Source: Petrotogaceae bacterium
GTDB taxonomy: Bacteria > Thermotogota > Thermotogae > Petrotogales > Kosmotogaceae
Direction of reading: 5' to 3'
Length of the DNA: 64,000 bases
NCBI GenBank assembly: GCA_963664675.2
Contig: CAXXLB010000002.1
Coordinates: 235,114 to 299,113, forward strand
The translations under genes and the position numbers were made by a program. This document shows positions 936 through 51,999 of this stretch, piece by piece (positions within the stretch are counted from its first letter, which is position 1; every line of letters begins with the position of its first letter). The notes beneath the pieces are model-generated. The model ran no database searches and was not told the origin of the DNA. It saw only the letters and a list, made by a program, of their open reading frames with translations.

Positions 936-3900
936 ATGAAAAAATTTATTTTTTTTATCTTGTTTTTGGTTATTTCATTTATTGGTGTTGGAAATAACAT
1001 TTACGATTATGTTCCTGGTGGAACGGAGTTTGTTTTAAGTGTGGGTAATGTTGATCCTCTTTTGGAAGCGGTTGAAGGTCTTTCGACCTATATGGGAGAA
1101 AGTACAATGGATGAAAATTTGCAAAATGCTTTAAATACGGCGCAGGGAGCGGAGATATTGCTGTTTGGTAATACTTCTCTGGCTCTGTCTTCAGGCTTAT
1201 TAAATTCTGATTTTGATTTTAAAGATGAGGAAGCGATAATACCGTTTATTTTAACTCAAGATCTAGTTTTAATAAATAATGTTTTCAATTCAGAATTTAT
1301 TGATAATTTTGTTCAAAGTACTTTTAAACCATTTATTGAAAGTAAGGGAACATTTGAAAGAGAAGAAATAAACATGCAGGATTATCCAATTTTGATTTAT
1401 AGAATTACTATAAACGGAAAAACCGAAAACCTTTACCTTATGCAGGATAATGATTATGCGATTCTATCGACAGATGAACACCTTCTTAGAAAGTCAATGG
1501 ATGCAAAAGAGTTTGAAGACAAAAGATTGAAAACGAATTATCCTTTTTTCAAAAATATAATAGAAAAAGATGGATTGATAACTTTTATGAACAGAGGATT
1601 TCAAATTAATGGGATTTTTCTGAAAGCGGCCGATATCATATATGGTTTTCCTGTGGCGGAATCTTTTGTGATATCTGTTGATAAAGAGATGAACTTTTAT
1701 TTTGATTTTCTTGCCGATTTGGAATACGATACAGATGTTGATAGAATTTATACAATAAACAGTGCAAGAGATACAGATACGTATGGAAATCTACCCGTTC
1801 CGGAAGGATTCAATCTGTTAATTTCAACGGGTAAAATTAATTTTTCACCTGAAAATATTTCAGATGTGCTGGGTAATTTTGATCCGCTGGACGATGTTCT
1901 TGATGCTGTAGAAAGTATAGAATCATTGGATATACTTTCGGAAATAATTCCTGTTTTTTTAAAATTTGCTAATTATCCTGAAATATGGTTTGACACCACA
2001 GGAGAAAAAGATTTAGAGATTTTCTTTAAAACTGATAACGCCTCTGAAGCAATTGAATTATTATCGGAAGAATTGGGTTCGGAAATAGAATTGAATGATG
2101 GGTTATACTTCATGTCTGATGGAAACGCATATATTATGGGACGTGACTCCGGAAATTGGCTTGAGATAGGGGCACCCGTTCCGGATGAGAGACCGTTGTA
2201 TGAAAACTCTCCAAAATTATCGGAAGTTCATCCTGCGTTTTTTGAAAAGCTGGAGGAATCGTACGCTTCAATAAACTCTTTAATATTTGCAGAAGAATAT
2301 GGAGAAGGAGCGTTAGGCTTCAACGGTGAAGGTGATTTAAAAATAAATCTGCATTTGAATTTGAAAAAATTTATAGAAATGTATCTTACGTTAGCTAACG
2401 ATTTCAGCATTACAGATTACAGTAATTCAAATGCTTCTGGAAATGAAGAAATTCTGAATATGATAATCGATGGAGAATTAGAATCATTTAAAAATAAAGT
2501 GAATGAAGGCTTTAACCCAGAATCGATAATAGATGATTGGGACATGGAAACTGCGCTTCATATAGCTGTTATATATGATCAACTTGAAATAGTTAAATAT
2601 TTGCTTGAAGAACTTCATGTATATCCTGATCCTCTTGATTACTATAATCAAACCCCTTTATATCTGGCCGTTTTATATGAAAATTATAATTTTTCAGAAT
2701 TATTGCTCGAAAATGGAGCGGATCCAAACATCGAAAATGATTATGGAGAAACCCCTCTATATATAGCCATTTCTTATGGGTATGATGATATTGCAGGGTT
2801 ATTGAAGGAATATGGAGCTGAAGAAGTGGAAATTCCTGAAACAGAAAAAGTTTTTAATATGGTAATGAATGGGGAATTGGAATCTTTCAGGAATAAAATA
2901 AACGAAGGATTCGATCCCGAAACGGTGATTGATGACTGGAATATGGAAACCGCCCTTCATGTTGCCGCTGCATATGATCAGCTTGAAATAGTTACATATT
3001 TACTTGAAGAACTTGATGTCTATCCGGATGTATTGAATTATTATGGGCAAACGGCATTAATTTTAGCGGCTTCATACGGGGACTATGATCTTTGTGAACT
3101 CTTGCTGAAAAATGATGCCGATCCCAACATTAAAGATGCTTTCGGTGAAAGTGCCCTTTATAATGCTGCAATGTATGGTTATGATGAAGTGGCTGAATTG
3201 TTGAAGGAATACGGGGCAGAAGAAGTGGATATAAATGTGACAGAAGGCAGCGACGAGATTTATAACATAATAATTTCCGGTGATATTGAAGCTTTTAAAA
3301 CAAAAATTGATGAAGGATTTGATCCCGAAGCGATAGTTGATAGCTGGTTAGATGAAAATTCTCTTCATGTTGCAGCAGCCAATTCGCAATACGATATTGC
3401 TGAATATCTTCTTGAGGATTTATGGGTTAATCCTGATCCTCTGAATGTTGATGAACAAACACCTCTTTATTTGGCCGTTATGAACGGTGATTATAATATG
3501 GTGGAACTACTTCTAGATAATTGGGCAAATCCTAACAGTGTTGATTCCTATGGTGACTCGGTGTTGTATATTGCAAAAATCTATGAACTCAGTGATATCG
3601 CTGATCTTTTGATTGAATATGGGGCGAATGATGATATAGATACAAGTGATATTTCATCTGTTATAAGTTCCGGAGATTTTGAAAAATTCAAAGAGGCCGT
3701 GGTAGATAAAGATCCGGATTATATAGTTGATAGTTGGATAGGTGATACTTTATTGATTACAGTGGCTAGATACGGAACACTGGAAATGGCCGAATATCTT
3801 TTGGATATGGGTGCAAATATCGAAATAACAAATCAGGATTTAGAAACCCCTATACTTGCAGCTTCGTATAATGGCAATTATGAAATGGTTGAATTCTTAT

Positions 3901-4997
3901 TGGAAAACGGTGCAAATCCTGATGTTATTGATTCATATGGATATACGCCGCTTTCAAATGCTTATTATGCTGATCCTGATATGATCGAATTGCTTCTCAA
4001 AAATGGTGCAGATCCGGATATTGAAGACGAAAATTACGATAGATTTCTATTTGATGCTATATACAACGAAGACAAAGAACTGGTTGATTTATTATTATAT
4101 TATGGAGCCGACGCTAATAAAGCAAACTCATATGGAGAAACACCGATAATGCTTGCAGAATACTACGGGTATGATGATATTGAGAGAACTTTAATGAATT
4201 ATGGGGCAGAAAGCCAAGCCTATATAGTGGAGTCATTTGAATTAGGGGATCTTGGATTTGTGAAAAAACTCGTTGAAGAGGGAAAGATCGATGAGAAAAT
4301 TAATAATCGAACCCCCATTTATTTGGCAACTTACTACTATCAACCAGAACTGGTAGAGTATCTGGTTGAAAACGGTGCTGATTTGAATATCCTTTCAGGA
4401 GAAAACGACGACCCTCCTATTTTCAATGTTATAGACGCCGGAGATACTGAAATGCTTGGTTATTTAATTACGAACGGCGCAGAGGTGAATATTTACAACA
4501 TGAATGGAATAACTCCGCTTTTGCTTGCCGCATCTTATAGCGATAAGGATGTGTACGATTTATTAGTTGAGTATGGGGCCGATGAAGATGTTAGTGATTA
4601 TAGCGGTAATATACCACTTTCTTACGTTATATATTTTGGCGAAGAAGGATATTTGGATTTTGCAAAATATTTAATTGAAAAGGGAGCGGTTTCGGATATA
4701 AATAAACTTTCAGACTACGGAGAGGCACCACTTTATTGGGCTTTGAGTGCAGCGAATTACGAGGGAGCCGATTTATTGATTGAATATGGAGCAAATATAG
4801 ATCTGAAAAATATTTCTGGTAACACTCTATTACACGCCGCTGTAGAAAACAATGATTTGCAGTCTGTAAAGTACCTCGTTGAAAAAGGAGCTAATCTTGA
4901 TCCGGAAAATGAGTGGGGAGAAACTCCTTTACAATTATCTCAAGCGTATGAATTCACTGAAATTTCCGAATATTTGAAGGAAATGGGTGCAAAATAA
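936..4997 (+). CDS. exported ankyrin-repeat protein (about 500-aa N-terminal domain of unknown function plus about 24 ANK repeats)
   Basis: GGAGGG lies 6 nt upstream of the ATG. The N-terminus MKKFIFFILFLVISFIGVG is hydrophobic and signal-like. From about aa 505 there are repeated ANK signatures (TALH.A...LEIV.YLLE, G.TPLY.A...G..D....LL..GADPN). Confidence 0.85.
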   Translation: MKKFIFFILFLVISFIGVGNNIYDYVPGGTEFVLSVGNVDPLLEAVEGLSTYMGESTMDENLQNALNTAQGAEILLFGNTSLALSSGLLNSDFDFKDEEAIIPFILTQDLVLINNVFNSEFIDNFVQSTFKPFIESKGTFEREEINMQDYPILIYRITINGKTENLYLMQDNDYAILSTDEHLLRKSMDAKEFEDKRLKTNYPFFKNIIEKDGLITFMNRGFQINGIFLKAADIIYGFPVAESFVISVDKEMNFYFDFLADLEYDTDVDRIYTINSARDTDTYGNLPVPEGFNLLISTGKINFSPENISDVLGNFDPLDDVLDAVESIESLDILSEIIPVFLKFANYPEIWFDTTGEKDLEIFFKTDNASEAIELLSEELGSEIELNDGLYFMSDGNAYIMGRDSGNWLEIGAPVPDERPLYENSPKLSEVHPAFFEKLEESYASINSLIFAEEYGEGALGFNGEGDLKINLHLNLKKFIEMYLTLANDFSITDYSNSNASGNEEILNMIIDGELESFKNKVNEGFNPESIIDDWDMETALHIAVIYDQLEIVKYLLEELHVYPDPLDYYNQTPLYLAVLYENYNFSELLLENGADPNIENDYGETPLYIAISYGYDDIAGLLKEYGAEEVEIPETEKVFNMVMNGELESFRNKINEGFDPETVIDDWNMETALHVAAAYDQLEIVTYLLEELDVYPDVLNYYGQTALILAASYGDYDLCELLLKNDADPNIKDAFGESALYNAAMYGYDEVAELLKEYGAEEVDINVTEGSDEIYNIIISGDIEAFKTKIDEGFDPEAIVDSWLDENSLHVAAANSQYDIAEYLLEDLWVNPDPLNVDEQTPLYLAVMNGDYNMVELLLDNWANPNSVDSYGDSVLYIAKIYELSDIADLLIEYGANDDIDTSDISSVISSGDFEKFKEAVVDKDPDYIVDSWIGDTLLITVARYGTLEMAEYLLDMGANIEITNQDLETPILAASYNGNYEMVEFLLENGANPDVIDSYGYTPLSNAYYADPDMIELLLKNGADPDIEDENYDRFLFDAIYNEDKELVDLLLYYGADANKANSYGETPIMLAEYYGYDDIERTLMNYGAESQAYIVESFELGDLGFVKKLVEEGKIDEKINNRTPIYLATYYYQPELVEYLVENGADLNILSGENDDPPIFNVIDAGDTEMLGYLITNGAEVNIYNMNGITPLLLAASYSDKDVYDLLVEYGADEDVSDYSGNIPLSYVIYFGEEGYLDFAKYLIEKGAVSDINKLSDYGEAPLYWALSAANYEGADLLIEYGANIDLKNISGNTLLHAAVENNDLQSVKYLVEKGANLDPENEWGETPLQLSQAYEFTEISEYLKEMGAK
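2444..4994 (+). repeat. ankyrin-repeat region organised in roughly 133-aa (about 400-bp) super-repeats
   Basis: The unit (I/V).N(M/I)(I/V)..G(E/D)(L/I)E.F..K(I/V).EGF(D/N)PE..(I/V)D.W...(T/S)(A/L)LH recurs starting near 2444, 2839 and 3249, with a degenerate copy near 3652. Each unit is followed by 3-4 ANK repeats ending EYGAEE. Confidence 0.75.
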
Positions 4998-5024
4998 AAA
5001 AATACAAAATTTAATTTTTAAAAA

Positions 5025-5052
5025 TGCTGCCTTACTCGGCAGTATTTTTTTT
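5025..5052 (+). terminator. rho-independent terminator after the ankyrin gene
   Basis: Stem TGCTGCC / GGCAGTA (one G-U pair), loop TTACTC, followed by T8. Confidence 0.7.
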
Positions 5053-5228
5053 GATAGTAAAATTAAAAAAAAAATTTTAAAAAGAAAGAAAAATACGATT
5101 CAAATCATTGATTCATTCGTATTTTTTTGGTTTTAACATACAGTTCACAGTTTTTTTCTTTTAGGTTGTTTAAATCATGTTAACATAAAATATATAAGTG
5201 TTATTTTTGGTTTACTGAGGAGTTTTTA

Positions 5229-6152
5229 ATGGAATGTAGGGGTAACATTCGAAAAATATTTGAAGGACTTCCCTTTTCGGCTTTTGATGGAAAAAGTTAT
5301 TGCTATACGGATATAAGCTTGAATTTTGAAAATTATAAGCTTTTATTCGATATGAACATACCATTGAAACAATTTTCCTTTTTTAAAAAGTTACAGAATA
5401 GTTCTTTGAAATCATTTTTTAATGGGATTAAAAGAGTAACTGTTATGTCTTATAACTTTTATAAAGTGGGTTTGGTAAATGTTGTCATTGAAAACCAACA
5501 GAGTGACATTCAAATTTTTGATCTGAATGATTTTGTATTGATCTGCAAATTTTTCTTTTACATAATAATTGCTTTGGAATACGATTTAGATTTTAGTCAG
5601 GAATCGGAGATAATAACAGAGCTTGTAAATATTTGGGAATCAAGAAATTTTTTCGAATTTTCCCATAGTAGAAGAGTTGCATTTTATTCTAAAACTTTTG
5701 CTGAAAAACTAAAAATGTCAAAAAGAGAAGTAAATGAGATTTATTGGGCGGCATTGGCACACGATTTAGGTAAAATCTTAGTGCCGGTAAAAATCTTGAA
5801 TAAGCCCGGACCTCTTTCCGATTCTGAATACAGGATTATAAAAAAACACAGTGAGAATGCGGATGTAATATTTTTTTATTTTAATACTTTCTCTAAATTT
5901 ATGCCAATAATAAAGCACCATCATGAGAAGTGGGATGGAACAGGTTATCCCGATCATTTGCTTGAAAATAATATTCCATTTTATTCGAGAATAATAAGTC
6001 TGGCAGATTCATACGACGCTATGACAAACTTTAGAGTGTACAAATTTGCAAAAACCACGCTTGAAGCTCTTAAAGAAATACATGAGGGTAGTGGAACCCA
6101 TTTCGATCCGGATTTATCGAGAGAATTTCTAAAATATGAAAAATTTTTGTAG
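5229..6152 (+). CDS. HD-GYP domain protein (putative c-di-GMP phosphodiesterase) with an uncharacterised N-terminal domain
   Basis: Motifs HDLGKILVP and HHHEKWDGTGYPDH, plus ADSYDAMT. It is a paralog of 10186-11106 over its whole length. Confidence 0.85.
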   Translation: MECRGNIRKIFEGLPFSAFDGKSYCYTDISLNFENYKLLFDMNIPLKQFSFFKKLQNSSLKSFFNGIKRVTVMSYNFYKVGLVNVVIENQQSDIQIFDLNDFVLICKFFFYIIIALEYDLDFSQESEIITELVNIWESRNFFEFSHSRRVAFYSKTFAEKLKMSKREVNEIYWAALAHDLGKILVPVKILNKPGPLSDSEYRIIKKHSENADVIFFYFNTFSKFMPIIKHHHEKWDGTGYPDHLLENNIPFYSRIISLADSYDAMTNFRVYKFAKTTLEALKEIHEGSGTHFDPDLSREFLKYEKFL

Positions 6153-6161
6153 GTGTAAAAA

Positions 6162-6842
6162 ATGTGTAGAATAGTGGCTTTTAAAAGTGATATAAAAATG
6201 AATACAGAACCGTTTTTGAATTATTTAACTTTTATTTCAAAATATGGTTATAATTATCCTCACAGAGATGGATATGGATATGTTGTTTTTGATGAATTGA
6301 ATTCATGGACTTTCAGATCTATGAATTGTATTTATGAGGAAGAAAAAACAGACAGCAAGATGGCTAATGCAGGAATATTTCATTCAAGAAAGGCATCGAC
6401 TTCGAATGGTTATAAACCGAGATTCAATCATGTTCATCCCTTCACAGGAATTGCAAATGGTATAAATTATGCTTTTATCCACAATGGAACAATAAATGAT
6501 TTTTCTAACTGCCCAGGTGAAATCGATACTCAAAAATATTTCAGGATATTGTTATCGAATTTAATTAATCAGAGCCCCGAGGAAGCTTTGAGGAGTACTT
6601 CAGATTTTATTTCGGAAAGATATAAGTATACATCTTTAATTTCTGTTCTTACGGACTACAAAAACATATGGTGTATCAAAAAGGTATACGATGAACATGA
6701 TTATAAACACGATCTTTTTTTGATAGAATTCAACAATTTTAGGATGATAGCCAGTGAAAAAGTCGAAGAAAAATTTTGCTATTTTGATATTAACCCATTA
6801 GGGTGCAGAAGAATACCAAATGGTAAAGTTATAAAATTATGA
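6162..6842 (+). CDS. class II (Ntn-type) glutamine amidotransferase-like protein
   Basis: Starts MCRIVAF (Cys2 nucleophile position). Contains HSRKAS......HPF and FIHNGTI blocks typical of YafJ-like GATase-2 domains. It begins 9 nt after the HD-GYP gene. Confidence 0.65.
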   Translation: MCRIVAFKSDIKMNTEPFLNYLTFISKYGYNYPHRDGYGYVVFDELNSWTFRSMNCIYEEEKTDSKMANAGIFHSRKASTSNGYKPRFNHVHPFTGIANGINYAFIHNGTINDFSNCPGEIDTQKYFRILLSNLINQSPEEALRSTSDFISERYKYTSLISVLTDYKNIWCIKKVYDEHDYKHDLFLIEFNNFRMIASEKVEEKFCYFDINPLGCRRIPNGKVIKL

Positions 6843-8522
6843 ATTACAGTATACTATTTTGCTTTTTTCTACAAGAGTAATTTCTTCCAAAAAATTGAAA
6901 ACACGTTTTCTTTCGGTTTTGCTTTTAAAACAAAACAATGAAATAATACCAGGTTGAATTTTCAAGCCTAAGATTTTGAAGATTTCTTTGTAATCTTCAT
7001 TGTCAATTTTTATTCCCCATTTTCTGGAATATCTGACATAGTTTCTGATGAAATTATCTATGGATTCCCTGATATCTTCTTCGAGAAAAAAATATCTGTT
7101 AATAAACTTTTCTTTGTATTTCTTGTTTAAATCGGCGAAAAAATTGTCTATCAGGGAAAATCTGGCTTTTTCAAATGTGTTCAGGTTACTTATTAAATAA
7201 AGAAATTTGATCCATTCACTTCTATTTTCCAGATAATCAATATTTTTAGTTCCAGAGATGATAATTTTTACAAAGAAATCAATGGATCCTTTCCTACATA
7301 GTTTTTTTATGAAGTGTTTTCTTTTGTATAAACAACTGTAAGTTTTAAAGATTAGAAATAATCTGTCTGTTTTTGGTAATGAGTTCAGATATTTCAGGTT
7401 CATTTTTGCACTGAACAGCTCTCTGGACTTAAATGATTCTCGTGCTACCGCAAAGGGTAAATGAAGAATATCCTTTTCAATATTAATGTTACTCAATAAC
7501 CCATTTAAAGTAGCGGAATTAATTGTTTTCTTTTTTCCGTTTATTATTTCAGAGATAGTTTTTCTTTGAATACCCGTTTTTCTACTGAATTCAGATATAT
7601 TATCAATTTTGCTTAAAAGGAATTTCTGAAGTTTTTTAGTATTTTTATAAGTATTGCTCTCACTACATGTTATTTGATCTAATTCGATGGATTTATTTAT
7701 AACATTTTTTGTCATTTCTTTTTCCTGTTTGGATATTTCTTTAGAAAAGGAGATGATTAAACGGGATATCTTGATCAATTCATCGCAATTATTGATAAGA
7801 AGAACACTGAAGTATGTATGAATTATATAGAAATGTCTTTGGCTATCAAAAAATCTCCCAAATATTGTAACGGCTTTTTCAATTATTATGCGGGAAAGAA
7901 GAGGATGACTCTGATAAATATACCATGCAATTGCATTCAGGGATAAAAGCATACCCGAAACGTGGAAACATTTATTTGAAACTTTATAAGCGGTTATAAA
8001 ATCTTGGATTCCACTTCTGCTATTTCCTTTTTTCATTTTTTCTCTTCCAAGATTGATCTTTACAAAAGCCAGAGCGCTGTCCTTAACACTTTTTAATTTA
8101 AGCTTACCGAGACAATTTTCATAAGAATCGTTGAGAGAACAATATCCCAAAGTTGTTACGACAACCGAATCATATCTTATATTTGGAGGAACATTGTGTA
8201 GATTTTTTCTTAAATAGTTGTATAGCCTGTCTCCATTTTTAAAATCTTTCATTTTCAAATACATATTTAATTTTCTGGAATTAATTAAAAACTCTAATGA
8301 TTTCGATTTTTCGAAATGTTCTGCTGTCTCAATGTACTTGAAGCTTTTCTCATAATTACGCGTGTGTTCCACGTTTAAAGCCTTTATGAAAAATTTCCAT
8401 GATTTTTCCTCGTCCGAAGAACAATTCTTTAACTCAACTTCAAGTAAATATATTATAAACGGATTCGAAAAAGAACCGTTATCAAAAAGTAATTTTGCGA
8501 AATTGAAAAGTCTGTTATTCAA
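6837..8522 (-). CDS. putative transcriptional regulator with a helical-repeat N-half and a central XRE-type HTH
   Basis: 561-aa ORF. An HTH-like segment, ISEFSRKTGIQRKTISEIINGKKKTINSATLNGLL, lies near aa 308-345. The rest has no motif I recognise. It is divergent from the repeat-protein gene. Confidence 0.45.
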   Translation of the reverse strand: MNNRLFNFAKLLFDNGSFSNPFIIYLLEVELKNCSSDEEKSWKFFIKALNVEHTRNYEKSFKYIETAEHFEKSKSLEFLINSRKLNMYLKMKDFKNGDRLYNYLRKNLHNVPPNIRYDSVVVTTLGYCSLNDSYENCLGKLKLKSVKDSALAFVKINLGREKMKKGNSRSGIQDFITAYKVSNKCFHVSGMLLSLNAIAWYIYQSHPLLSRIIIEKAVTIFGRFFDSQRHFYIIHTYFSVLLINNCDELIKISRLIISFSKEISKQEKEMTKNVINKSIELDQITCSESNTYKNTKKLQKFLLSKIDNISEFSRKTGIQRKTISEIINGKKKTINSATLNGLLSNINIEKDILHLPFAVARESFKSRELFSAKMNLKYLNSLPKTDRLFLIFKTYSCLYKRKHFIKKLCRKGSIDFFVKIIISGTKNIDYLENRSEWIKFLYLISNLNTFEKARFSLIDNFFADLNKKYKEKFINRYFFLEEDIRESIDNFIRNYVRYSRKWGIKIDNEDYKEIFKILGLKIQPGIISLFCFKSKTERKRVFNFLEEITLVEKSKIVYCNS

Positions 8523-8701
8523 AAAACACCTCTATAAGCTAATTACAGATTATGCCTGAGTAATTATACTACAATTTTACAAAAAAAATCAAACGTATAA
8601 ATTTGCTGCTTTTGCATCGCCCATGAACAAAGAGTTATGAAAGGCTATAAAATTGACAATCAAAATAAGAGTTGTATCCTTAGAATAAGGGAGGTGTCGA
8701 T

Positions 8702-9871
8702 GTGAGAAGGTTTTTCTTAAAATCGACGAAAATATTTTTATTTTTGTTTGTATTTTTGTCTTTTCAATTTTTGTTTTTTTCTGATGCTGTTAGTTTAGAT
8801 TTGTTTTCGAGTAATTATGATTATCTTAATAGGGTTTATGATCCACCTGACATAGATAACCTTGAGTCCGGAAGAGGATTGCTTGCCTACGATCCACCTG
8901 ATATAGATAACCTTGAGTCCGGAAGAGGATTGCTTGCCTACGATCCACCTGATATAGATAACCTTGAGTCCGGAAGAGGATTGCTCGCCTACGATCCACC
9001 TGACATAGATAACCTTGAGTCCGGAAGAGGATTGCTCGCCTACGATCCGCCTGATATAGATAACCTTGAGTCCGGAAGAGGATTGCTTGCCTATGATCCT
9101 GATGATATAGACAATATCGGGGCGAAAATGTTCTCGGAAAGATTTGAGGGAGCACTTGCCTATGATCCTGATGATATAGACAATATCGGTGCGAAAATGT
9201 TCTCGGAAAGATTTGAAGGAGCGCTTGCCTATGATCCTGATGATATAGACAATATCGGAGCGAAAATGTTCTCGGAAAGATTTGAGGGAGCGCTTGCCTA
9301 TGATCCTGATGATATAGACAATATCGGGGCGAAAATGTTCTCGGAAAGATTTGAAGGAGCGCTTGCCTATGATCCTGATGATATAGATAATATCGGGGCG
9401 AAAATGTTCTCGGAAAGATTTGAGGGAGCGCTTGCCTATGATCCTGATGATATAGACAATATCGGGGCGAAAATGTTCTCGGAAAGATTTGAAGGAGCGC
9501 TTGCCTATGATCCTGATGATATAGACAATATCGGAGCGAAAATGTTCTCGGAAAGATTTGAGGGAGCGCTTGCCTATGATCCTGATGATATAGACAATAT
9601 CGGGGCGAAAATGTTCTCGGAAAGATTTGAAGGAGCGCTTGCCTATGATCCTGATGATATAGATAATATCGGGGCGAAAATGTTCTCGGAAAGATTTGAG
9701 GGAGCGCTTGCCTATGATCCTGATGATATAGACAATATCGGGGCGAAAATGTTCTCGGAAAGATTTGAAGGAGCACTTGCCTATGATCCTGATGATATAG
9801 ATAATCTTGAATCTGTGAGAGATCTTGCTTGTTTGAAATTTGAAGGGAGAGAATATTTATGGAGAATATAG
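8702..9871 (+). CDS. exported tandem-repeat protein (5 x 17 aa plus 10 x 23 aa)
   Basis: GGGAGGTG lies upstream of a GTG start. The N-terminus KIFLFLFVFLSFQFLFF is signal-peptide-like. About 90 percent of the mature protein is perfect repeats. All nucleotide differences between units are synonymous. Confidence 0.75.
   Translation: MRRFFLKSTKIFLFLFVFLSFQFLFFSDAVSLDLFSSNYDYLNRVYDPPDIDNLESGRGLLAYDPPDIDNLESGRGLLAYDPPDIDNLESGRGLLAYDPPDIDNLESGRGLLAYDPPDIDNLESGRGLLAYDPDDIDNIGAKMFSERFEGALAYDPDDIDNIGAKMFSERFEGALAYDPDDIDNIGAKMFSERFEGALAYDPDDIDNIGAKMFSERFEGALAYDPDDIDNIGAKMFSERFEGALAYDPDDIDNIGAKMFSERFEGALAYDPDDIDNIGAKMFSERFEGALAYDPDDIDNIGAKMFSERFEGALAYDPDDIDNIGAKMFSERFEGALAYDPDDIDNIGAKMFSERFEGALAYDPDDIDNLESVRDLACLKFEGREYLWRI
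8837..9091 (+). repeat. tandem repeat A: 5 x 51 bp encoding YDPPDIDNLESGRGLLA
   Basis: Five head-to-tail in-frame copies. They differ only at synonymous sites (tat/tac, gac/gat, cca/ccg, ctt/ctc). Confidence 0.95.
9092..9781 (+). repeat. tandem repeat B: 10 x 69 bp encoding YDPDDIDNIGAKMFSERFEGALA
   Basis: Ten in-frame copies with identical amino-acid sequence. gag and gaa alternate strictly. Units 3-6 are repeated in units 7-10 (a 276-bp higher-order repeat), apart from one synonymous gcg/gca difference in unit 10. Confidence 0.95.
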
Positions 9872-9963
9872 ATTTAAAAAATACGGAAGAATCGATTGTA
9901 AAAGAAACAAAGAAAATAATGGAAAATGTATACAGTTCAGAAGAGTTAATTTTAGAGTGGTAG
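9859..9963 (+). CDS. small acidic peptide, 34 aa (MENIDLKNTEESIVKETKKIMENVYSSEELILEW)
   Basis: Not on the ORF track. AAGGGAGAG lies 7 nt upstream of the ATG. It overlaps the repeat-gene 3' end by 13 nt. It has a paralog 17 nt downstream, and many differences between the two are synonymous. Confidence 0.55.
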   Translation: MENIDLKNTEESIVKETKKIMENVYSSEELILEW

Positions 9964-9979
9964 AAGGGGGAAATAATTA

Positions 9980-10084
9980 ATGGAAAATATAGATTTAAAA
10001 AATACTGAGGAACAGATCATCAATGAAACAAAAAATGTTATGGAAAATATTTATAATTCAGAAGAATTAATCATTGAATGGTGA
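9980..10084 (+). CDS. small acidic peptide, 34 aa (MENIDLKNTEEQIINETKNVMENIYNSEELIIEW)
   Basis: Not on the ORF track. GAAGGGGG lies upstream of the ATG. It has the same length as 9859-9963, the same N-terminal 11 aa and the same C-terminal EEL(I)(L/I)EW. Confidence 0.55.
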   Translation: MENIDLKNTEEQIINETKNVMENIYNSEELIIEW

Positions 10085-10185: not shown

Positions 10186-11106
10186 ATGAATAAAGTGCTG
10201 AAAACGTATGAGATTTTTGAAAATTTACCATTTCAAAGTTTTTACAAAGATTCTGTATTATTAAATGACCAGACACAGATAGGGGAATTAGATCTTATTT
10301 TTAGAATTAATATACCTCTCAGGAAATTTGATTTTATAGATGATTTTTATACCTGTAATTTAAGTTGTTATGGTTTGAACAATTCGAGTCAGGTTGTAAT
10401 ACGTTTTGAATGTGATAATATGTCTGCAGTGGACATAAAAATTCTTAAACTGAAAAGAGATCTTGAATTGTATGATCTTAATGATTTCATCCTTCTCAGC
10501 AAATTCTTTTTCTATTCTGTATTGGTATCTAATCAACAATTTACATTCGAAGAAGAATGTCATTTGGTATCGGAACTGGTTAATATCTGGGAATCCAGAA
10601 ATGTTTTTGAATATGCACATAGCAGCAGAGTAGCCTTTTATTCAAAAAGATTTGCGGGAACAATAGGTATGTCTCCAAGTGATCAGAATGAAATATATTG
10701 GGCTGCCTTTGCTCATGATTTGGGGAAGATTTTTGTCCCCAAAAAAATTCTGAACAAATCGGGAGAATTATCTCAAGAAGAGAGAGAACAGTTAAAGAAT
10801 CATACTTATTTGATAGATTGTATATTTGACGCTTTTGATAATTTTAATGCTTTACTTCCTTCCATAAAGCATCACCACGAAAGGTGGGATGGATACGGAT
10901 ATCCTGATCACCTTTCAAGAGAAGAGATACCATTGTATTCAAGAATAATAAATATTGCTGATTCATATGATGCAATGATAAATTTTAGAGTTTATAAAAA
11001 CGCTTTATCTTCCTCTCTGGCCACAAAAGAAATAGAAAAAGGAGCTGGATATCAGTTTGATCCGGATCTTGCAAAAGAATTTATTAAATTTCAAAGAAGG
11101 TTATAA
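10186..11106 (+). CDS. HD-GYP domain protein, paralog of 5229-6152
   Basis: Motifs HDLGKIFVP, HHHERWDGYGYPDH and ADSYDAMI. It shares N-terminal blocks with the first copy (IFENLPF, DLNDFILLSKFFFY, ELVNIWESRNVFE). Confidence 0.85.
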   Translation: MNKVLKTYEIFENLPFQSFYKDSVLLNDQTQIGELDLIFRINIPLRKFDFIDDFYTCNLSCYGLNNSSQVVIRFECDNMSAVDIKILKLKRDLELYDLNDFILLSKFFFYSVLVSNQQFTFEEECHLVSELVNIWESRNVFEYAHSSRVAFYSKRFAGTIGMSPSDQNEIYWAAFAHDLGKIFVPKKILNKSGELSQEEREQLKNHTYLIDCIFDAFDNFNALLPSIKHHHERWDGYGYPDHLSREEIPLYSRIINIADSYDAMINFRVYKNALSSSLATKEIEKGAGYQFDPDLAKEFIKFQRRL

Positions 11107-12003
11107 ATTATTTTTTTCTAAAAAATTGTAGATAGTTTTTTCATATTCTTTTCTGTTTGTTGCAAAAGATTCGACGTGCCTTGCATCATCAACCAGATAT
11201 AATACTTTTTTCCCAATATTTTTTGCGTTGTATAATTCTATACTCATAGAAGTGGGTACAAAATCATCTTTCTTTCCGTGTATTAAAAGAGTAGGAATGG
11301 TGCTATTTTTAATATCTTTTATAGGTGAAACTTCTCCAAAAAAAAATTTAAATTTTATTTTTGAAATTAAACTGGTAATTGGTATTATAAGAAAATAAGG
11401 AAGTTTGTAGTCTTTCTTTAATCTATATCCTAATTGTTTTTTTAAATCTGAATAAGGACAATCGGCTATAATGAAAGATGCTCTATTATCTATGGCAGAA
11501 TATTGAATGACCGTTCCTCCACCAAGGGATTCACCCATAGCACCTATTTTTGCATTTTCGCCCAATTTTTCAAAAAGCCAATTAATGCACGTTTTCAAAT
11601 CATATTTTTCAAAAAAGCCAAAACTTGTAAACTTTCCACCACTAAATCCATGATACCTGTTGTCGAACAGAAGAACATTGTATTCTTTTTTTCTGAACAT
11701 ATCAAGATATTTTATAGTTCCTGCATGGGTCCATGTGTAGCCGTGAACAAGAACGATTGCTTTTTTTGATCCTGGTTTTTCAAAGAATTTGCCATATAGC
11801 TTATAACCAAATTCAGAAGATATATTGACCTCTTCATATTTAAGATTGTCGATATATTCCCGTGTATAATCCCCGTTTTCAACGCCAAAATTAATTGTAT
11901 AGTCATAATCCTTTGTTTTTGGCTTATTTGCCAAATTTGAAAATATTATGCCAATAGAAATAAATGCTCCCAGAAAAATGATTGATACAATAAAAAAAAT
12001 CAT
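11101..12003 (-). CDS. membrane-anchored alpha/beta hydrolase
   Basis: N-terminal TM segment, HGYT oxyanion region, nucleophile elbow GESLGG, and C-terminal D...H (DDARH). Confidence 0.8.
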   Translation of the reverse strand: MIFFIVSIIFLGAFISIGIIFSNLANKPKTKDYDYTINFGVENGDYTREYIDNLKYEEVNISSEFGYKLYGKFFEKPGSKKAIVLVHGYTWTHAGTIKYLDMFRKKEYNVLLFDNRYHGFSGGKFTSFGFFEKYDLKTCINWLFEKLGENAKIGAMGESLGGGTVIQYSAIDNRASFIIADCPYSDLKKQLGYRLKKDYKLPYFLIIPITSLISKIKFKFFFGEVSPIKDIKNSTIPTLLIHGKKDDFVPTSMSIELYNAKNIGKKVLYLVDDARHVESFATNRKEYEKTIYNFLEKNNL

Positions 12004-12018: not shown

Positions 12019-13506
12019 TCAGGAAATGTTATAAATTTCGTAATATTTTATATTTAAGTAATTCATAAATGATTCGGAAGATAAAGTGTGGCCTGTAACC
12101 TTTTTAATGAGTTCTTCCGTATCATATAAAGCCCCATGTTTATAAACATTATTTTTGAGCCAGTCTATTACTTCTTCAAAGTTTCCGGTACTTACAGTTT
12201 CGAAAGCATTTTTCTTTTCCGATAACAATTTTTGAAAAAATTGTGAAGAGATCAGGTTCCCAAGCATATACGATGGAAAATATCCAAATTTTCCACCTGC
12301 CCAATGAATATCTTGTAAAATACCTTCCGAATAATTTTCGGGAACGATATTTAAGTATTTATTCATTTTTTCGTTCCATATTTTGGGCAAATCATCCAAA
12401 TTTATATTATTTTTCAAAAGGGCACTTTCGAGTTCGAATCTTATAAATATATGTAAATTATAGGTGACTTCATCAGCCTCGATTCTTATTGGTTGTTTTT
12501 TAACGGCGTTGATGGCTTTATAAAAGTCCATTAATTTTATCTGTTGCATATTTTCAAAATAAAATTTTATTTTGTCAAATAGATATTTGATGAAGGGAAA
12601 GCTTTTTCCTATGAGATTTTCCAAGAGTCTTGATTGAGATTCATGAACAGAAAAAGATGCGCCCTGGGAAATCGGAGTCCATTTATAACTTTTATCGATA
12701 TTCATTTCATATAAAGCATGTCCGCATTCGTGAATCGTTCCATAAAGAGATGAAGTAAAGTTATTGGGATTGAATTTTGTTGTTATTCTCACATCATCTC
12801 TTGTTATTGAAATTGTAAAAGGGTGTTCTGATTCATCATATCTGCCGTTATTAAAATCGAACAGAAATTTTTTTAAAATATGTTTGCAGAGTTTTTTCTG
12901 AGTCTCGATTGAATAATTATTATACAGAAAAGAATCATCAACTTGCCTGGAAGCAAAAATTCTTTTTGTTAAATCGATGAGATCATCTTTAAAGGTAGAA
13001 ATAAGATTTTCTATTTTGCTTTCTGTTATTCCATAATCATAAATATCCAGAAAATAATCATATGGATTTTCAACGTATCCATTCGCGGCAGCAATTTCTT
13101 TAGATAGTTCAATGTTGTCCTTTAAATAGGGTTTAAAAATTTCGTAATTTTCTTCTTTTTTTGCCTTTAACCAATAAAACTGAGCTCTGGAAATTGCTTT
13201 TGTATATTTTAAGTAAAGTTCAGGAGGAATATTTTTGAGTTTTTTGTAATTTCTGAAAATCAAGCTATAAATTCTTTTATTCACTTGATTCAATTCATCC
13301 GGATTGATTTTATCCATTATTTCTTCTGTTTCATTAGAAGTGCTTTTTCTCTGATATTCAGAAGAAAGATATCCTATGACTTCCGACCTGTCACTTCCCG
13401 AATCCGGAGGAAGATAAGTTCTTTGATCCCATTGAAGAAGTGATAGAGCGGAATTCAAATAAGAAATTTCATTAAATTTTTTCAACAGCTTTTCGATATT
13501 TTCCAT
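12019..13506 (-). CDS. carboxypeptidase Taq family metallopeptidase (M32)
   Basis: 495 aa. Contains HPF, the HEXXH site HECGHALYE, and DIHWAGGKFGYFPSY, all hallmarks of M32. Confidence 0.9.
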   Translation of the reverse strand: MENIEKLLKKFNEISYLNSALSLLQWDQRTYLPPDSGSDRSEVIGYLSSEYQRKSTSNETEEIMDKINPDELNQVNKRIYSLIFRNYKKLKNIPPELYLKYTKAISRAQFYWLKAKKEENYEIFKPYLKDNIELSKEIAAANGYVENPYDYFLDIYDYGITESKIENLISTFKDDLIDLTKRIFASRQVDDSFLYNNYSIETQKKLCKHILKKFLFDFNNGRYDESEHPFTISITRDDVRITTKFNPNNFTSSLYGTIHECGHALYEMNIDKSYKWTPISQGASFSVHESQSRLLENLIGKSFPFIKYLFDKIKFYFENMQQIKLMDFYKAINAVKKQPIRIEADEVTYNLHIFIRFELESALLKNNINLDDLPKIWNEKMNKYLNIVPENYSEGILQDIHWAGGKFGYFPSYMLGNLISSQFFQKLLSEKKNAFETVSTGNFEEVIDWLKNNVYKHGALYDTEELIKKVTGHTLSSESFMNYLNIKYYEIYNIS

Positions 13507-13944: not shown

Positions 13945-14487
13945 TTGAGTAATTATAATTATAAAATACTTGGAATCGATCCGGGATTTGGAAGAATGGG
14001 CTATGGAATAATAGGAATAACCGGCTCCAGGGTTTCCTGTTTGAATTACGGAGTAATAGAAACCGATCCTAGCTGGGAACTGCCGGAAAGGATAGTATAT
14101 ATATATAACGATATAAAAAAAATAATCAGAGAGTTTGAACCCGAAGAATCGGCGATCGAAAAACTTTTTTTCTTCAGGAATGTTACCACTGCGATTCATG
14201 TCAGCCAGGCTACGGGAGTTGCTATTTTGGCTTTGCAACAGGCCAAAATTCCTATTTATGAATATACTCCTTACCAGATAAAACAATCTGTTACAGGATA
14301 TGGAAAAGCCGAAAAAGGACAGATTCAAAGAACACTGAAGCTTTTTTTCAATTTAGAAAAAACACCGAAACCTGATGATGCTTCCGATGCTTTAGCGGCA
14401 GCGTGGTGCAGATACACATCTAGATCTACATTGGGGGGTGAAAAAGTTGGTAATAAGTTTAGAATTAAAAAACAGGGAACTGAGTGA
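13945..14487 (+). CDS. ruvC: crossover junction endodeoxyribonuclease RuvC
   Basis: GGAGGTG plus a TTG start. Contains ILGIDPGFGRMGYGII, IEKLFFFRN, GYGKAEK.Q and PDDASDALAAA. Confidence 0.9.
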   Translation: MSNYNYKILGIDPGFGRMGYGIIGITGSRVSCLNYGVIETDPSWELPERIVYIYNDIKKIIREFEPEESAIEKLFFFRNVTTAIHVSQATGVAILALQQAKIPIYEYTPYQIKQSVTGYGKAEKGQIQRTLKLFFNLEKTPKPDDASDALAAAWCRYTSRSTLGGEKVGNKFRIKKQGTE

Positions 14488-17400
14488 TTTATATGAAAAA
14501 ATTACAGGATATTTACCTGATGAAAATTATAACGAACTTAAAGTTGAGAAAATTAATATAAATACCAATAGAAGAGAAATAGTTTTTTATGTTCAAAAGA
14601 GGAATAAAGAGTTGAATTTAGAGAAACTGAATGATGAATTTAAAGGTTTTTTTAAAAAAAATTTCAATTCCTTCGTGAAAGTGATCGATCTGGAAAACAG
14701 AAATGAAAATATGGAATTTAACATAGAGAGTTTTTATGAAATGTTACCCAGAATTTTAGTTGACAATCTCATGGTATCTAAAGTTGAGTTGAAAGAAGAT
14801 AAATTTTTTATAGGATGCCCCAATGAATTTATAAAGGATTTTATAATCAAACACGAAAAAGAACTTGAGGAAAATCTTCAGAAATACTTTTCCAGGAGCA
14901 TAAGTTACAAAATATATTTGGAAGAAAACAAATTAAAAGAAGAAGATATAATTCCCCCCGAAATTGCAAAGGAAATCAGAACGGTTAAAAAAGAGAAATC
15001 CAAGAAAATTATATTGGGAAGAAGGATAAATGAGATTCCCAGACCATTGAACAGGATAAATGAAAACGACCAGAAAGTAACCGTTTCCGGAGAAATTGTT
15101 GAAATAGATTCAAGAACGGGGAGGTTCAATGTTATAACATTTGTTTTAACGGATTATACGAGTTCGATTACTTGTAAAGCTGTGGGTGAAGATGCGAAAA
15201 TTCTTATTGACAATCTTTCAGAAGGGGATGAAGTTATCATTAGAGGTTTTCTGGATAATAATGATAAATATATAAAGGAAAGATACATAAGTGTTAAAGA
15301 TTTGAGCAAATCATCTCTTAAAAAAAGAAAGGATCTGAGTGAAGAGAAAAGAGTAGAACTACATTTACATACGAAAATGAGTATGGTCGATGCTACTACG
15401 GATATAAAAAAGTTGTTTAAAACCTTAAAGGACTGGGGACATGATTCGGTAGCACTGACTGATCACGGTGTGGTTCAATCAATACCTGAATTTTATTTTA
15501 CGGCGAAGGAATTTGATATAAAGCCTATTTTTGGAATGGAAGGGTATTTAGTGAACGATTCTGAACCGATTTATAAATATTTCACAGATGAAAGAATGAG
15601 AATGGATGAGGCGGTTTATACCGTTTTCGATTTGGAAACAACGGGGTTTGAATCAATAGATAACGAAATAATTGAGGTTGGAGCGGTGAAAATGCAGGGT
15701 GAAAAAATAATTGAAACCTTTTCCGCTTTCGTAAAGCCCAAACAGGAAATACCTCAAAAAGTAACGGAAATAACGGGAATAAATTATGAAATGGTAAAAG
15801 ATGCTGAGTCCGATGAAAAAGTATTGAGAGATTTTCTGGACTTTTCTAAAAATACCATTCTTGTCGCTCACAATGCGAATTTTGATTATTCATTCATAAA
15901 GAATGTAATAAGAAGTAAAATAAATGATGAATGGGATATGCCTATAATAGATACATTAATTCTTTCACGATCACTTGTGAATTTAAAAAGTCATTCGTTG
16001 GATAGACTGATAAATTATTTTAAATTGGGAGATTTCGAACATCACAGGGCAAGTGAAGATGCGCGAGTGACCGCACAAATGTTTTTAAAATTACAGGAAA
16101 TTGCTAAAAAAAAGGGAATTGAAAAAATTTGGGACTTTGATTCTCTGAGAAACAAAGAAGCTTATAAGAAAGCTCCAAGATACCATATCACAATGTTGGC
16201 AGCAAATGAGACCGGTCTCAAAAATCTTTACAAATTAGTCAGTATATCTCATACGGAGGATTTCTATTTCACTCCGAGAGTTTTTAAGAGTATTCTTGAT
16301 AAATACAGAAATGGTCTTCTGATTGGATCGGCTTGTGTAAGTGGATTGCTTTCTCAGACGTATCTTTCATCGGTGTCCGAAAAGGAATTGGAAGAAACGG
16401 CAAAATATTTTGATTACATAGAAATTATGCCTCTTGATATTTATGGAGGTGTCAAGAAAGAAACTATGAAAGATATGTACATAGAATTTTATCGTATTGG
16501 GAAAAAATTTAATATTCCCGTTGTAATGACTGGGGATGTTCATTATATAGAACCTCATGAGGAATTATTCAGATCTGTTATACAAGCCGCAGAAAAAGGA
16601 AGAGAGAAAACTTTTGACAAGCAACCTCCTTTATATTTAAGGACAACGGAAGAGATGCTTGAAAAAGCATATGAAATCTTCGAAGATGAAAAAATTGCAA
16701 AAGAGATAGTAATTGATAACACCAGAAAAATAGTTTCAAGAATAAAAGAATTAGTTCCAGTGAAAGGTGTTTTGAATCCCCCGAAAATAGATGGTGCCGA
16801 AGAAAAAGTAAGAAATATAACGTATGAAACTGCCAGGAAAATATACGGGGAGCCTCTTCCGGAAATTATTCAGGAAAGAATAGAAGTTGAACTTCATGCG
16901 ATTATAGATAATGGTTATGCCGTACTGTATTTGATAGCAGCCGATATGGTAAAAAAATCTAATGAGGATGGATATATAGTCGGTTCCAGAGGTTCAGTAG
17001 GGAGTTCGTTGGTGGCCAATTTAATGGGAATCACCGAGGTTAATCCTTTGTTACCCCATTACGTTTGTCCAAATTGCAAATATTCAGAGTTCATAGAAGA
17101 ACCATATTATGAATCCGGTTATGATCTACCCAGAAAGGAATGCCCGCATTGCGGGATGGATTTGCAGAAAAACGGTCAGAGAATCCCGTTCGAAACTTTT
17201 TTGGGTTTTGGAGGGGGAAAAGTACCGGATATCGATTTGAATTTTTCGGGAGAATATCAGGAAAGAGCACATAGATTTTTAGAAGAAATGTTCGGCAGAG
17301 ATCACGTTTTTAGAGCCGGAACGATAGGAACTCTGGCGGAAAAAACGGCGTATGGATTCATCAATGCCTATACAGAATTGAAAGGAACATACTTTACCAA

Positions 17401-23492: not shown

Positions 23493-23567
23493 TGGAGCGA
23501 AAGACGGGATTCGAACCCGCGACCCCCTGCTTGGCAAGCAGGTGCTCTACCACTGAGCTACATTCGC
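23493..23567 (-). tRNA. tRNA-Gly (anticodon GCC)
   Basis: Reverse complement reads GCGAATGTAGCTCAGTGGTAGAGCACCTGCTTGCCAAGCAGGGGGTCGCGGGTTCGAATCCCGTCTTTCGCTCCA. Cloverleaf fits, the anticodon loop is TTGCCAA, and CCA is encoded. Confidence 0.88.
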
Positions 23568-23591
23568 ATACCCTTTCACGAGTGGCAAAAC

Positions 23592-23679
<88 letters not shown>

Positions 23680-23755
23680 TGGTGACTCGCCCGGGGCTCG
23701 AACCCGGGACCCCTTGATTAAAAATCAAGTGCTCTGCCTTCTGAGCTAGCGAATC
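23680..23755 (-). tRNA. tRNA-Lys (anticodon TTT)
   Basis: Reverse complement reads GATTCGCTAGCTCAGAAGGCAGAGCACTTGATTTTTAATCAAGGGGTCCCGGGTTCGAGCCCCGGGCGAGTCACCA. The anticodon loop is TTTTTAA. Confidence 0.88.
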
Positions 23756-50674: not shown

Positions 50675-51999
50675 TATTCCCCTATTGAATAAGATTGAAT
50701 CTCATGAGTTAATTCCTCAATAGTATTTATAGCTTCCGCAATTCCTTCCGAATGGAAAAGTTTGAAACATCTGTAAAATTCCACTTCATCTCCAGCCTTG
50801 AAATGCATTACATAATCTTCCCAACCACCTGCTGCAATGCCTTCTGTTGAAGGATAGGCCTGAAATTCTCCTGGGATCCACATGAAATATCCATCTCTGA
50901 ATTCTCTGCTTTCGTATACCCATTGAGGTCCACGAATCCACTTTTCATAATCGGCATAAACGAGGGGTTTTTCAGGAAGAATTTCTGCAACACCTATTTT
51001 CATAGATGGAGAGTAATTGGATCTCCAGTTTTCCTCCGAAGCATAAATATACGTTGCGCCCCACCATAACGGTCTCATCGCATCGGTGGCGGGGAAAACG
51101 GTGAATAATTTGTCATTGAGTTTCAGAGAAGCGCCTCTGTCTGACCAGTATTCCCAGGGAGTCGAATTGAGTTGATCGGCCCATAACAATCTTCTGAATG
51201 TGGGTAAGATATGAACGGAATCATCGGAAATATCCGTGATTGGTCTTGTAACCATGGGCTGTAGCTTCATGAGATCCTGGTAATTTTCAAATTCGAATGT
51301 AGTATCGACAATGATGTAACCGTTTTTGAAAATTGTGGTTTTGATTATCTGATTGAGACCCACAAACTGTGGCGATCTCAATTTCGCGTATACCGTAACA
51401 CCTACGTTACCGGCGGGATTTACATCCATATTTTCAACAATAAACTCTCCCGAAGTTTTTTCCTGATGACTGTTCCCATAACTTCCGTCGATATAATATG
51501 TTGAACCTACCCAACCTGCAACACGCGCCGTTCCGATTTCGTCAACTATCGTTCCTTCGTTTCCCATGAACTCAACTATTCTTACCAGACCGGATCTATT
51601 GACCAGCGCTTTGAAATTGTCAAAAGTGATCAGTATTCCGTCTTCGGTATCTTCGATTGTGGCGCATGGGGTGATTTCCTGTGCGAAATCATCTTCGGAT
51701 AGTACGATTTTCGCTGGGCCTTCCAGTAAGGTCATCAGAATGTCATCCGAGGATAGTTTTTCGTTTTTGTCCAGATCGTCGATTTGAAATTGTATAACAT
51801 TTTCTTCTCCGTCAACGATTTTTAAAGAATTCCAGTTTACATCCACATCGAATCCGACGATATCTAATAGATCCTCCAGATTTATCGTTACAGGTACCGG
51901 ATCGTCTGTAACTTTTGTAATGTTTAAGGGAATTTCCACTACTTCAGCCGTGAGTACTATACCAATAAGTAAAATAAAAAGAATTAACAGTCTTTTCAT
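50674..51999 (-). CDS. exported protein of unknown function (441 aa)
   Basis: AGGAGG precedes the start. Signal-like MKRLLILFILLIGIVLTA. A LacI-type operator lies 26 nt upstream. Confidence 0.6.
   Translation of the reverse strand: MKRLLILFILLIGIVLTAEVVEIPLNITKVTDDPVPVTINLEDLLDIVGFDVDVNWNSLKIVDGEENVIQFQIDDLDKNEKLSSDDILMTLLEGPAKIVLSEDDFAQEITPCATIEDTEDGILITFDNFKALVNRSGLVRIVEFMGNEGTIVDEIGTARVAGWVGSTYYIDGSYGNSHQEKTSGEFIVENMDVNPAGNVGVTVYAKLRSPQFVGLNQIIKTTIFKNGYIIVDTTFEFENYQDLMKLQPMVTRPITDISDDSVHILPTFRRLLWADQLNSTPWEYWSDRGASLKLNDKLFTVFPATDAMRPLWWGATYIYASEENWRSNYSPSMKIGVAEILPEKPLVYADYEKWIRGPQWVYESREFRDGYFMWIPGEFQAYPSTEGIAAGGWEDYVMHFKAGDEVEFYRCFKLFHSEGIAEAINTIEELTHEIQSYSIGE

Follow-up and report, generated by a model that had tools for sequence, protein, structure and literature searches.

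The stretch of DNA analysed here, 64,000 nucleotides of a Petrotogaceae bacterium (GenBank assembly GCA_963664675.2, contig CAXXLB010000002.1, positions 235,114 to 299,113) and hereafter called the window, carries on its forward strand a gene for a putatively exported protein of 389 residues which contains tandem repeat units of two related types. Upstream of it, and divergently oriented, lies the gene for a large regulator with a helix-turn-helix (HTH) motif; downstream, on the same strand as the repeat gene, are two genes for small acidic peptides and one for an HD-GYP-type cyclic di-GMP (c-di-GMP) phosphodiesterase. Judged by its sequence and its place beside the regulator, the repeat gene is the 16-unit member of a family of peptide genes which otherwise hold one or two units. 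Its parts, as read from the translation and, for the units, from a unit alignment and Tandem Repeats Finder (TRF), are the following:

8653-8680, + strand: promoter-like site TTGACA-16-TATCCT upstream of the repeat gene, matching the consensus at 10/12 positions; candidate promoter.
8702-9871, + strand: repeat open reading frame (ORF), GTG start, 389 amino acids, 16 units in all.
8702-8788, + strand: GTG start codon and putative Sec-type signal peptide, residues 1-29 (MRRFFLKSTKIFLFLFVFLSFQFLFFSDA), with a predicted cleavage site.
8789-8836, + strand: short pro-region of 16 amino acids (VSLDLFSSNYDYLNRV) ahead of the first unit.
8837-9091, + strand: A units, 5 x 51 bp (17 amino acids), each YDPPDIDNLESGRGLLA.
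9092-9781, + strand: B units, 10 x 69 bp (23 amino acids), each YDPDDIDNIGAKMFSERFEGALA.
9782-9871, + strand: degenerate or hybrid last unit (YDPDDIDNLESVRDL...) and tail (YDPDDIDNLESVRDLACLKFEGREYLWRI, stop), the final codons overlapping the ribosome-binding site (RBS) and start of the next gene.
Within the repeat ORF, + strand: unit boundaries ...GLLA/YDPP... (A) and ...GALA/YDPD... (B).
Within the repeat protein, + strand: unit frames PPDIDNLESGRGLLAYD and PDDIDN...ALAYD, obtained if the cut falls between D and P (alternative cut register).

The coordinates, unit sequences and copy numbers (five units of 17 and ten of 23 amino acids) agree with those of an earlier note made from the letters of this DNA; TRF reports 5.3 copies of a 51-bp period and 10.4 copies of a 69-bp period. 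The N-terminus runs from MRRFFLKSTK through 16 hydrophobic residues to SDA, and on the strength of these basic, hydrophobic and small-residue regions the repeat protein (ca. 38 kDa when intact) is probably exported by the Sec pathway. The same order of n, h and c regions is common to all of its positional equivalents. The nucleotide differences among the copies occupy four columns of the A units (unit offsets 2, 8, 14 and 47) and four of the B units (offsets 20, 29, 56 and 62). All eight columns are at codon position 3 and all the differences are synonymous, as had been claimed for every difference in the earlier note, whose list missed only cca/ccg in A5. At least some nine independent mutational events are required, eight transitions and one transversion. 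Since the share of possible changes in the units which are synonymous is 30-33% for transitions and 14-19% for transversions, the probability that all of these ~9 events would be synonymous is ~1.4e-5; a simpler count, eight out of eight columns at position 3, gives (1/3)^8 = 1.5e-4. The units are under purifying selection at the level of the peptide. The B array nests two longer periods, one of 138 bp (GAG/GAA) and one of 276 bp (B3-B6 = B7-B10). GAG and GAA alternate strictly from B1 to B10, and B7-B10 reproduces B3-B6 with the sole exception of gcg/gca in B10, both as previously described; the edge units B1 and B10 both carry gca. An antisense ORF of 316 amino acids (8826-9776, - strand) spans the whole array, which is explained by the absence of stops from the repeat unit in that frame. 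It is not a gene: the differences between units are amino-acid changes in that ORF, which identifies the + frame as coding.

The array is real in several samples. A word-indexed homologue search with the repeat protein gave zero matches and a metagenome scan with it found no relative; a genome scan revealed two relatives of the gene, both in Thermotogota metagenome-assembled genomes. The first, from a Kosmotogales bacterium (L001/L002), has ~94% DNA identity, and the second, listed as 'uncultured Thermotogaceae' (L003/L004), about 75-76%. In addition, a JGI contig (L006) carries an identical regulator and also breaks in the array, and an exhaustive HMMER search contained one true homologue, a 75-residue fragment (P0001). 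All of these assemblies (L001/L002, L003/L004, L006 and P0001) end or are N-masked inside the array, and the figure of 5 + 10 copies comes from the window only. The comparison with relatives which the earlier note had proposed thus yields a shared head sequence and, because the other assemblies break or are masked within the array, no comparison of copy number. Degenerate last units equivalent to that of the window are present in L001 and L004. The B units of the 94% relative read DNLGAKMFSERFEG[T/A/M]LA, the EG[T/A/M]LA position being polymorphic among units; the units of the 75-76% relative are 18 and 19 amino acids long (YDPPDIDNLEAGGRGLLA and YDPPDIDNLEAGGFRGMYA), with the head retained and the tail altered.

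The head of the units, YDPPDIDN[LI], is kept across the relatives and the tails vary freely (SGRGLLA, IGAKMFSERFEGALA, AGGRGLLA, AGGFRGMYA). The Ile/Leu difference between the window and the 94% relative is fixed in every visible unit of each genome, which implies that concerted evolution adds to the identity of the units. The strong peptide constraint proposed in the earlier note is consequently borne out for the head; the tails change freely, and part of the identity among copies is owed to concerted evolution. The signals ahead of the gene are also kept. The promoter block TTGACAATCAAAATA.GAGTT.TATCC..A.AATAAGGGAGGTGTCGAT is nearly invariant in the 94% and 76% relatives, the RBS GGGAGGTG which precedes the GTG is conserved in the relatives, and where the window has its GTG start, the 76% relative (L003) has an ATG.

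The neighbours with which the repeat gene forms a conserved cassette are:

6837-8522, - strand: 561-residue protein, predicted to be all-helical, with a central Cro/C1-type HTH (residues about 305-350); divergent from the repeat gene, anchor of the cassette and candidate regulator or receptor.
9859-9963, + strand: gene 1 for a 34-residue acidic peptide (MENIDLKNTEESIVKETKKIMENVYSSEELILEW), its first 13 bases lying within the end of the repeat gene.
9980-10084, + strand: gene 2 for a 34-residue acidic peptide (MENIDLKNTEEQIINETKNVMENIYNSEELIIEW), a 121-bp tandem duplicate of gene 1.
10186-11106, + strand: HD-GYP-type (Pfam HD_5, 1.3e-32) c-di-GMP phosphodiesterase, 306 amino acids, downstream of the repeat gene and on the same strand.

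Homologs of the regulator lead to more distant loci. That of a Kosmotoga sp. (P0152, locus L005) is 39% identical, and a profile-guided metagenome scan added L008-L012 at 25-30% identity; UniRef assigns the L008 type to Dictyoglomus thermophilum and D. turgidum. A profile search built on six regulators gave no further proteins. At every homologous regulator locus there is a divergent upstream small ORF in which a Sec-type signal peptide is followed by an Asp-Pro head, and such a signal-peptide ORF adjoins the regulator divergently in the window, L003, L005, L008-L011 and L012. The Kosmotoga sp. peptide (L005) has two units, DYDPPDGEVVDGV, in the arrangement MVKKG...ISVS-DYDPPDGEVVDGVIFTTPCIV-DYDPPDGEVVDGVSEFRFEL. 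The Dictyoglomus-type peptide (L008-L011) has one unit, DPAPGENQ..., placed as ...NIVFA/DPAPGENQTYSSKPPVEVVVNLSNK, and that of L012 likewise one unit, DPGEDCLNNTES..., placed as ...GFVFA/DPGEDCLNNTESVNPVVEVY. These positional equivalents would give mature peptides of 20-40 amino acids from their one or two units. When the window and all loci were translated in six frames the head motif was confined to these peptide genes. In L005 the two heads differ at 5/13 codons, all synonymously, and the two tails are unrelated to each other; between the Dictyoglomus species the mature peptide shows six synonymous differences versus one non-synonymous. As D-P stands at the N-terminus of the predicted mature peptide in the single-unit relatives, its conservation is not explained by a role as the scissile bond between units.

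The phosphodiesterase is the second recurrent partner. An HD_5 gene comes after the peptide gene in L004, L005 and L008/L010/L011, that is in three of four lineages when the window clade is included. In L005 the genes after the peptide gene encode an SBP_bac_3 protein and a GAF-HD_5 protein; in the Dictyoglomus loci a single SBP_bac_3-transmembrane-GAF-HD-GYP fusion takes this place. In the window the cassette is flanked by a paralogous pair of HD-GYP genes (5229-6152 and 10186-11106; 306-307 amino acids), the products of which have in common an uncharacterised N-terminal domain of ~130 residues and not the GAF or SBP_bac_3 domains found in the Kosmotoga sp. and Dictyoglomus. Kosmotogales loci also possess one or two acidic peptides of 34-36 amino acids with an aromatic last residue. 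The form seen in the window (MENIDLKNTEE...EELILEW) is conserved in L001 and L004, and a 36-residue version (...ESIVEEVYDEQVVF) occurs in L005. The 34-residue peptides have no signal peptide and no match to a Pfam or NCBIfam family. The 13-base overlap of gene 1 with the repeat gene suggests translational coupling, and the peptides might serve as a further peptide signal or as a small effector, in a position like that of aimX. No riboswitch or other RNA was found in or around the operon with Rfam, PADLOC assigned it to no defence system, and in the window, L005, L010 and L012 the conserved cassette holds no defence gene, no transporter, immunity or modification gene, and no maturase for ribosomally synthesised and post-translationally modified peptides (RiPPs).

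A resemblance of the regulator to known peptide receptors is hinted at. Pfam and NCBIfam recognise nothing in the regulator beyond the HTH, and when its profile was run against the sequences of the PDB the best E was 0.035, to an unrelated protein. The AlphaFold2 (AF2) model, built on a two-row alignment, is all-helical with a predicted local distance difference test score (pLDDT) of 52. The top Foldseek matches of this low-confidence model are tetratricopeptide repeat (TPR) proteins including NprR (5dbk/4gpk), all at a non-significant E>=7e-3, and alignment to a consensus TPR with hhalign gave E 0.0035 at a probability of 9%. Together these are suggestive of a TPR-like character for the 561-residue protein. 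A gene (6162-6842) convergent with that of the regulator, and overlapping it at the 3' end, encodes a 226-residue protein which starts MCRIVAF (Ntn-type Cys1) and has a weak GATase_4 match as well as a match to phrog_13070 (E 1e-6); it is conserved in L003 and not in the distant loci.

We consider it somewhat probable that the repeat gene encodes a tandemly amplified propeptide from which two related peptides are cut, in many copies, to feed a circuit of regulator and c-di-GMP. The protein would be a Sec-exported pre-pro-polypeptide, an amplified form of the small secreted 'Asp-Pro-head' peptide of the Kosmotogales, Dictyoglomus and the L012 lineage. Once the signal peptide has been removed, the chain would be cut outside the cytoplasm at or near each unit boundary, ...[GA]LLA/ALA | YDP..., to yield a 17-mer (about five copies), a 23-mer (ten copies) and a single variant, which would have the head (Y)DP[PD]DIDN in common. 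The boundaries ...ALA/YDP and ...LLA/YDP resemble the presumed signal-peptidase site ...VFA/DP of the single-unit relatives; the Asp-Pro bond, which is chemically labile, would be an alternative cut site. The released peptides may act as extracellular signals of density or environment. They could be sensed by the divergent HTH protein after uptake or, in the relatives, by the periplasmic SBP_bac_3 sensor joined to GAF-HD-GYP, and the output would be transcription of the operon together with turnover of c-di-GMP by the HD-GYP enzyme made from the same transcript. The array may have grown by unequal recombination (69 to 138 to 276 bp), thereby giving more peptide per transcript at a fixed ratio of the two types. 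The multi-core precursor suggested in the earlier note is hence the reading favoured by the secreted equivalents of one or two units, which have the same Asp-Pro head and lie beside the same regulator family; the processing step itself is our inference.

Two genes further downstream were considered as sources of processing enzymes and set aside, since they are syntenic in close relatives only and absent from L005, L010 and L012. The first (11101-12003, - strand) encodes a membrane-anchored alpha/beta hydrolase with S9/S33/S15-like peptidase matches, and the second (12019-13506, - strand) is an ORF which reads as an M32 (Taq-type) carboxypeptidase; both are syntenic in the 75% relative.

A number of observations weigh against the proposal of an amplified signal precursor. 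Neither a peptide product nor a cleavage site nor a protease is known, and the unit boundaries show no recognised protease motif. At 17-23 amino acids the units exceed the typical length of the pheromones of the RRNPPA family, the peptide-receptor systems of Bacillota. Purifying selection on each unit is not obviously expected where there are ten redundant copies. Neither AF2 nor Foldseek nor hhalign demonstrates that the regulator is a peptide receptor, and oligopeptide permease (Opp) genes were not seen among the window ORFs scanned, a partial survey. Across the distant loci the presumed homology of the peptides rests on position and a short motif. The L012 locus has no adjacent HD-GYP gene and carries instead one for a 168-residue ankyrin protein (4775-5284), and the SBP_bac_3 sensor of the relatives is missing in the window clade. 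Lastly, the B unit resembles the BspA-type leucine-rich repeat (LRR), and AF2 models the B units as a beta-solenoid at pLDDT 75-85.

These last two points are the starting place of the first alternative, namely that the array is a folded repeat domain, BspA-type LRR-like or another beta-solenoid, which is exported to the periplasm or the toga and serves as a partner-binding, adhesin or structural fibre, the identity of its units being due to recent expansion. The exhaustive HMMER search gave 731 matches at E<=1e-3 to long repeat proteins; 9/10 of the sampled top matches were Pfam LRR_5 proteins. The B unit can be set in consistent register with a 24-residue LRR_5 variant (PDDIDNIGAKMFSE-RFEGALAY versus P[DE]S[IV]xxIGxxAFSxNxFxGxLxI), LRR_5 itself is matched at 25 bits, and in the AF2 model each B unit forms two strands. 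The score of 25.0 bits, however, is below the gathering threshold of 27.7, no stretch passes, and true members score 218-604 bits. The same query also matches RNA polymerase omega (NCBIfam rpoZ, 5.7e-6) and ten unrelated PHROGs to 4.7e-8, again with zero stretches passing. Whole-protein E-values are inflated here because the query is one 23-residue unit repeated ten times, so that a weak similarity per unit is multiplied; the HMMER matches other than LRR proteins are heterogeneous and unrelated repeat proteins. The single-sequence AF2 model of the array, a beta-solenoid with a mean pLDDT of 69, has no PDB match at E<=0.001 in Foldseek (best E 0.36, TM score 0.23), and LRR proteins appear only at E 0.8-10. 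The A units (17 amino acids) and the units of the relatives (18, 19 and 21) are of insufficient length and have no IGxxAF core, positional equivalents with one or two units cannot build a solenoid, and what the relatives conserve is the head and not the LRR-like insert. Nor is there an anchor or a second domain such as an adhesin would have: the C-terminus (...LACLKFEGREYLWRI) has no hydrophobic anchor, and no other Pfam domains were found in the repeat protein. We regard a folded repeat domain as unlikely. The surface or Ca-binding fibre offered in the earlier note finds no backing in these results, there being no anchor and no significant fold match, and mature peptides of 20-25 amino acids being unable to form a fibre repeat. 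Ca-binding of the EF-hand, RTX or dockerin-like kind was considered separately and rejected; it has no family match, and the Asp-rich head with its DIDN is not conserved in the distant members.

It is equally improbable, in our view, that the gene product is the precursor to many secreted peptides whose role lies outside signalling, whether as acidic binders of metal or Ca, as peptides associated with the matrix or the toga, or as an anionic factor in competition or antimicrobial action, with the regulator merely controlling expression. Such a precursor shares with the signalling proposal the anatomical and comparative support for a multi-unit secreted precursor; the heads are Asp-rich (YDPDDIDN), and peptide binding by the regulator is without direct support. 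Against this stand the loss of Asp-richness in the Dictyoglomus and L012 peptides, the conserved cassette with its lack of immunity, transporter and modification genes, and the net acidic character of the peptides as translated, which is unlike that of most membrane-active bacteriocins. That the peptide genes are repeatedly found linked to HD-GYP and sensor domains speaks for signal transduction.

A multi-core RiPP precursor, in which the units would be cores, or the heads recognition sequences, modified and then excised as in cyanobactins and repeat-type RiPPs, is very unlikely. A single precursor does hold many identical cores, two small conserved peptides are encoded downstream, and an Ntn-type GATase_4-like protein and an alpha/beta hydrolase are nearby; yet no radical-SAM, YcaO, lanthipeptide, cyanobactin-protease or other maturase gene was found in the cassette or across the loci, the N-terminus reads as a Sec signal and not a RiPP leader, and L005, L010 and L012 have neither the GATase-like nor the hydrolase gene. 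Just as improbable is an artefactual length or structure of the array, produced when the assembler expanded or mis-joined a short repeat: the 5 + 10 copies have no cross-validation, as the other assemblies all break in the array, and a 276-bp higher-order repeat is of the type which assemblers can duplicate, but both ends of the array, both unit types and the degenerate last unit recur in independent assemblies of other samples, the array is longer than reads or inserts in those samples as well, as their contig breaks show, and ordered synonymous variants with distinct edge units are typical of real arrays.

The remainder of the window includes a gene (936-4997) for a 1353-residue protein with a signal-peptide-like N-terminus and >13 ankyrin repeats (Ank_2, E 5e-116), an uncommon feature among bacteria, and two adjacent ORFs of 778 and 441 amino acids (48338-50674 and 50674-51999, - strand) with no Pfam match at E<=1e-5. 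The PolC-type DNA polymerase III alpha subunit (14438-18649) and a tRNA-Gly/Leu/Lys cluster (23493-23755) are housekeeping content consistent with a chromosomal Thermotogota context.

More broadly, the locus may represent an undescribed family of peptide signalling outside the Firmicutes, spread over the Kosmotogales of the Thermotogota and the Dictyoglomota and made up of an 'Asp-Pro-head' peptide, a family of receptors in which TPR-like flanks surround a central HTH, and an HD-GYP output, with the window contributing a 16-unit polyprotein that yields two peptides at 1:2, perhaps by enzyme-free cleavage at the Asp-Pro bonds, which are labile to heat and acid. We offer this tentatively and think it rather doubtful as a whole. 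Peptide quorum sensing with cytoplasmic receptors is documented in Firmicutes and their phages. If the signalling proposal is true, it would be extended to deep-branching, mostly thermophilic lineages, and the locus supplies parts which can be synthesised: defined peptides, a conserved promoter-like site, a candidate receptor and a c-di-GMP enzyme. The 16-unit array would then be an extreme natural dosage amplification of a bacterial propeptide, combining concerted evolution with purifying selection on each unit, and useful for studying the evolution of signal strength and signal identity. Were the solenoid alternative true, the protein would be an unusually clean natural 'designed-repeat' protein, of less general interest. 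Our literature search found no paper on this peptide family and nothing relevant on peptide signalling in Kosmotoga or Dictyoglomus or on TM0504. For peptide signalling in the Thermotogota, PMC4187201 (citing Johnson 2005) gives only an old and unresolved hint from Thermotoga maritima.

The repeat gene can be compared with four kinds of known system. BspA-type LRR proteins (PF13306, LRR_5) resemble it in the 23-residue period of the B units and the pattern P-D-x-[IV]-x-x-I-G-x-x-[AM]-F-S-x-x-F-x-G-x-L, and differ in all that was set against the solenoid above: the sub-threshold score, the 17-21-residue A and relatives' units without the core, the orthologues of one or two units and the lack of a significant fold match. 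Multi-core RiPP precursors, for example the cyanobactin precursor PatE, hold several identical or similar cores; here there is a Sec signal and not a leader, there are no maturase genes, and the cores are not rich in Cys, Ser or Thr. Eukaryotic polyprotein precursors, among them the yeast alpha-factor precursor MFalpha1, the Kex2-processed repeat proteins of fungi and the neuropeptide precursors, release tandem peptides by proteolysis. They share with the window gene a signal peptide and a short pro-region ahead of one or two peptides in tandem copies, and a copy number which sets dosage; they differ from it in having dibasic (KR/RR) boundary sites, separate spacers and a host that is not bacterial.

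The RRNPPA systems (Rap-Phr, NprR-NprX, PlcR-PapR, AimR-AimP) are alike in more respects. In them, too, a small Sec-exported propeptide gene adjoins the gene of a cytoplasmic regulator with an HTH and, here putatively, helical repeats, mature peptide copies occur in internal tandem, extracellular proteolysis is proposed, and the peptide diverges fast between relatives. Tandem pheromone copies, up to eight identical ones, have been reported in RRNPPA propeptides, from which they are freed by extracellular proteases (PMC11343458; PMC9765709). The locus is nevertheless not one of them. RRNPPA systems belong to the Bacillota and this locus to the Thermotogota and Dictyoglomota; their receptors usually have an N-terminal HTH and C-terminal TPRs, whereas the regulator here matches no RRNPPA family and has its HTH in the centre; and their pheromones are 5-10 amino acids long, compared with 16 units of 17-23 here. 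They conserve the C-terminal end of the propeptide, whereas the present family conserves the N-terminal Asp-Pro head of each unit, and its operon adds an HD-GYP c-di-GMP phosphodiesterase together with one or two acidic peptides of 34-36 amino acids.

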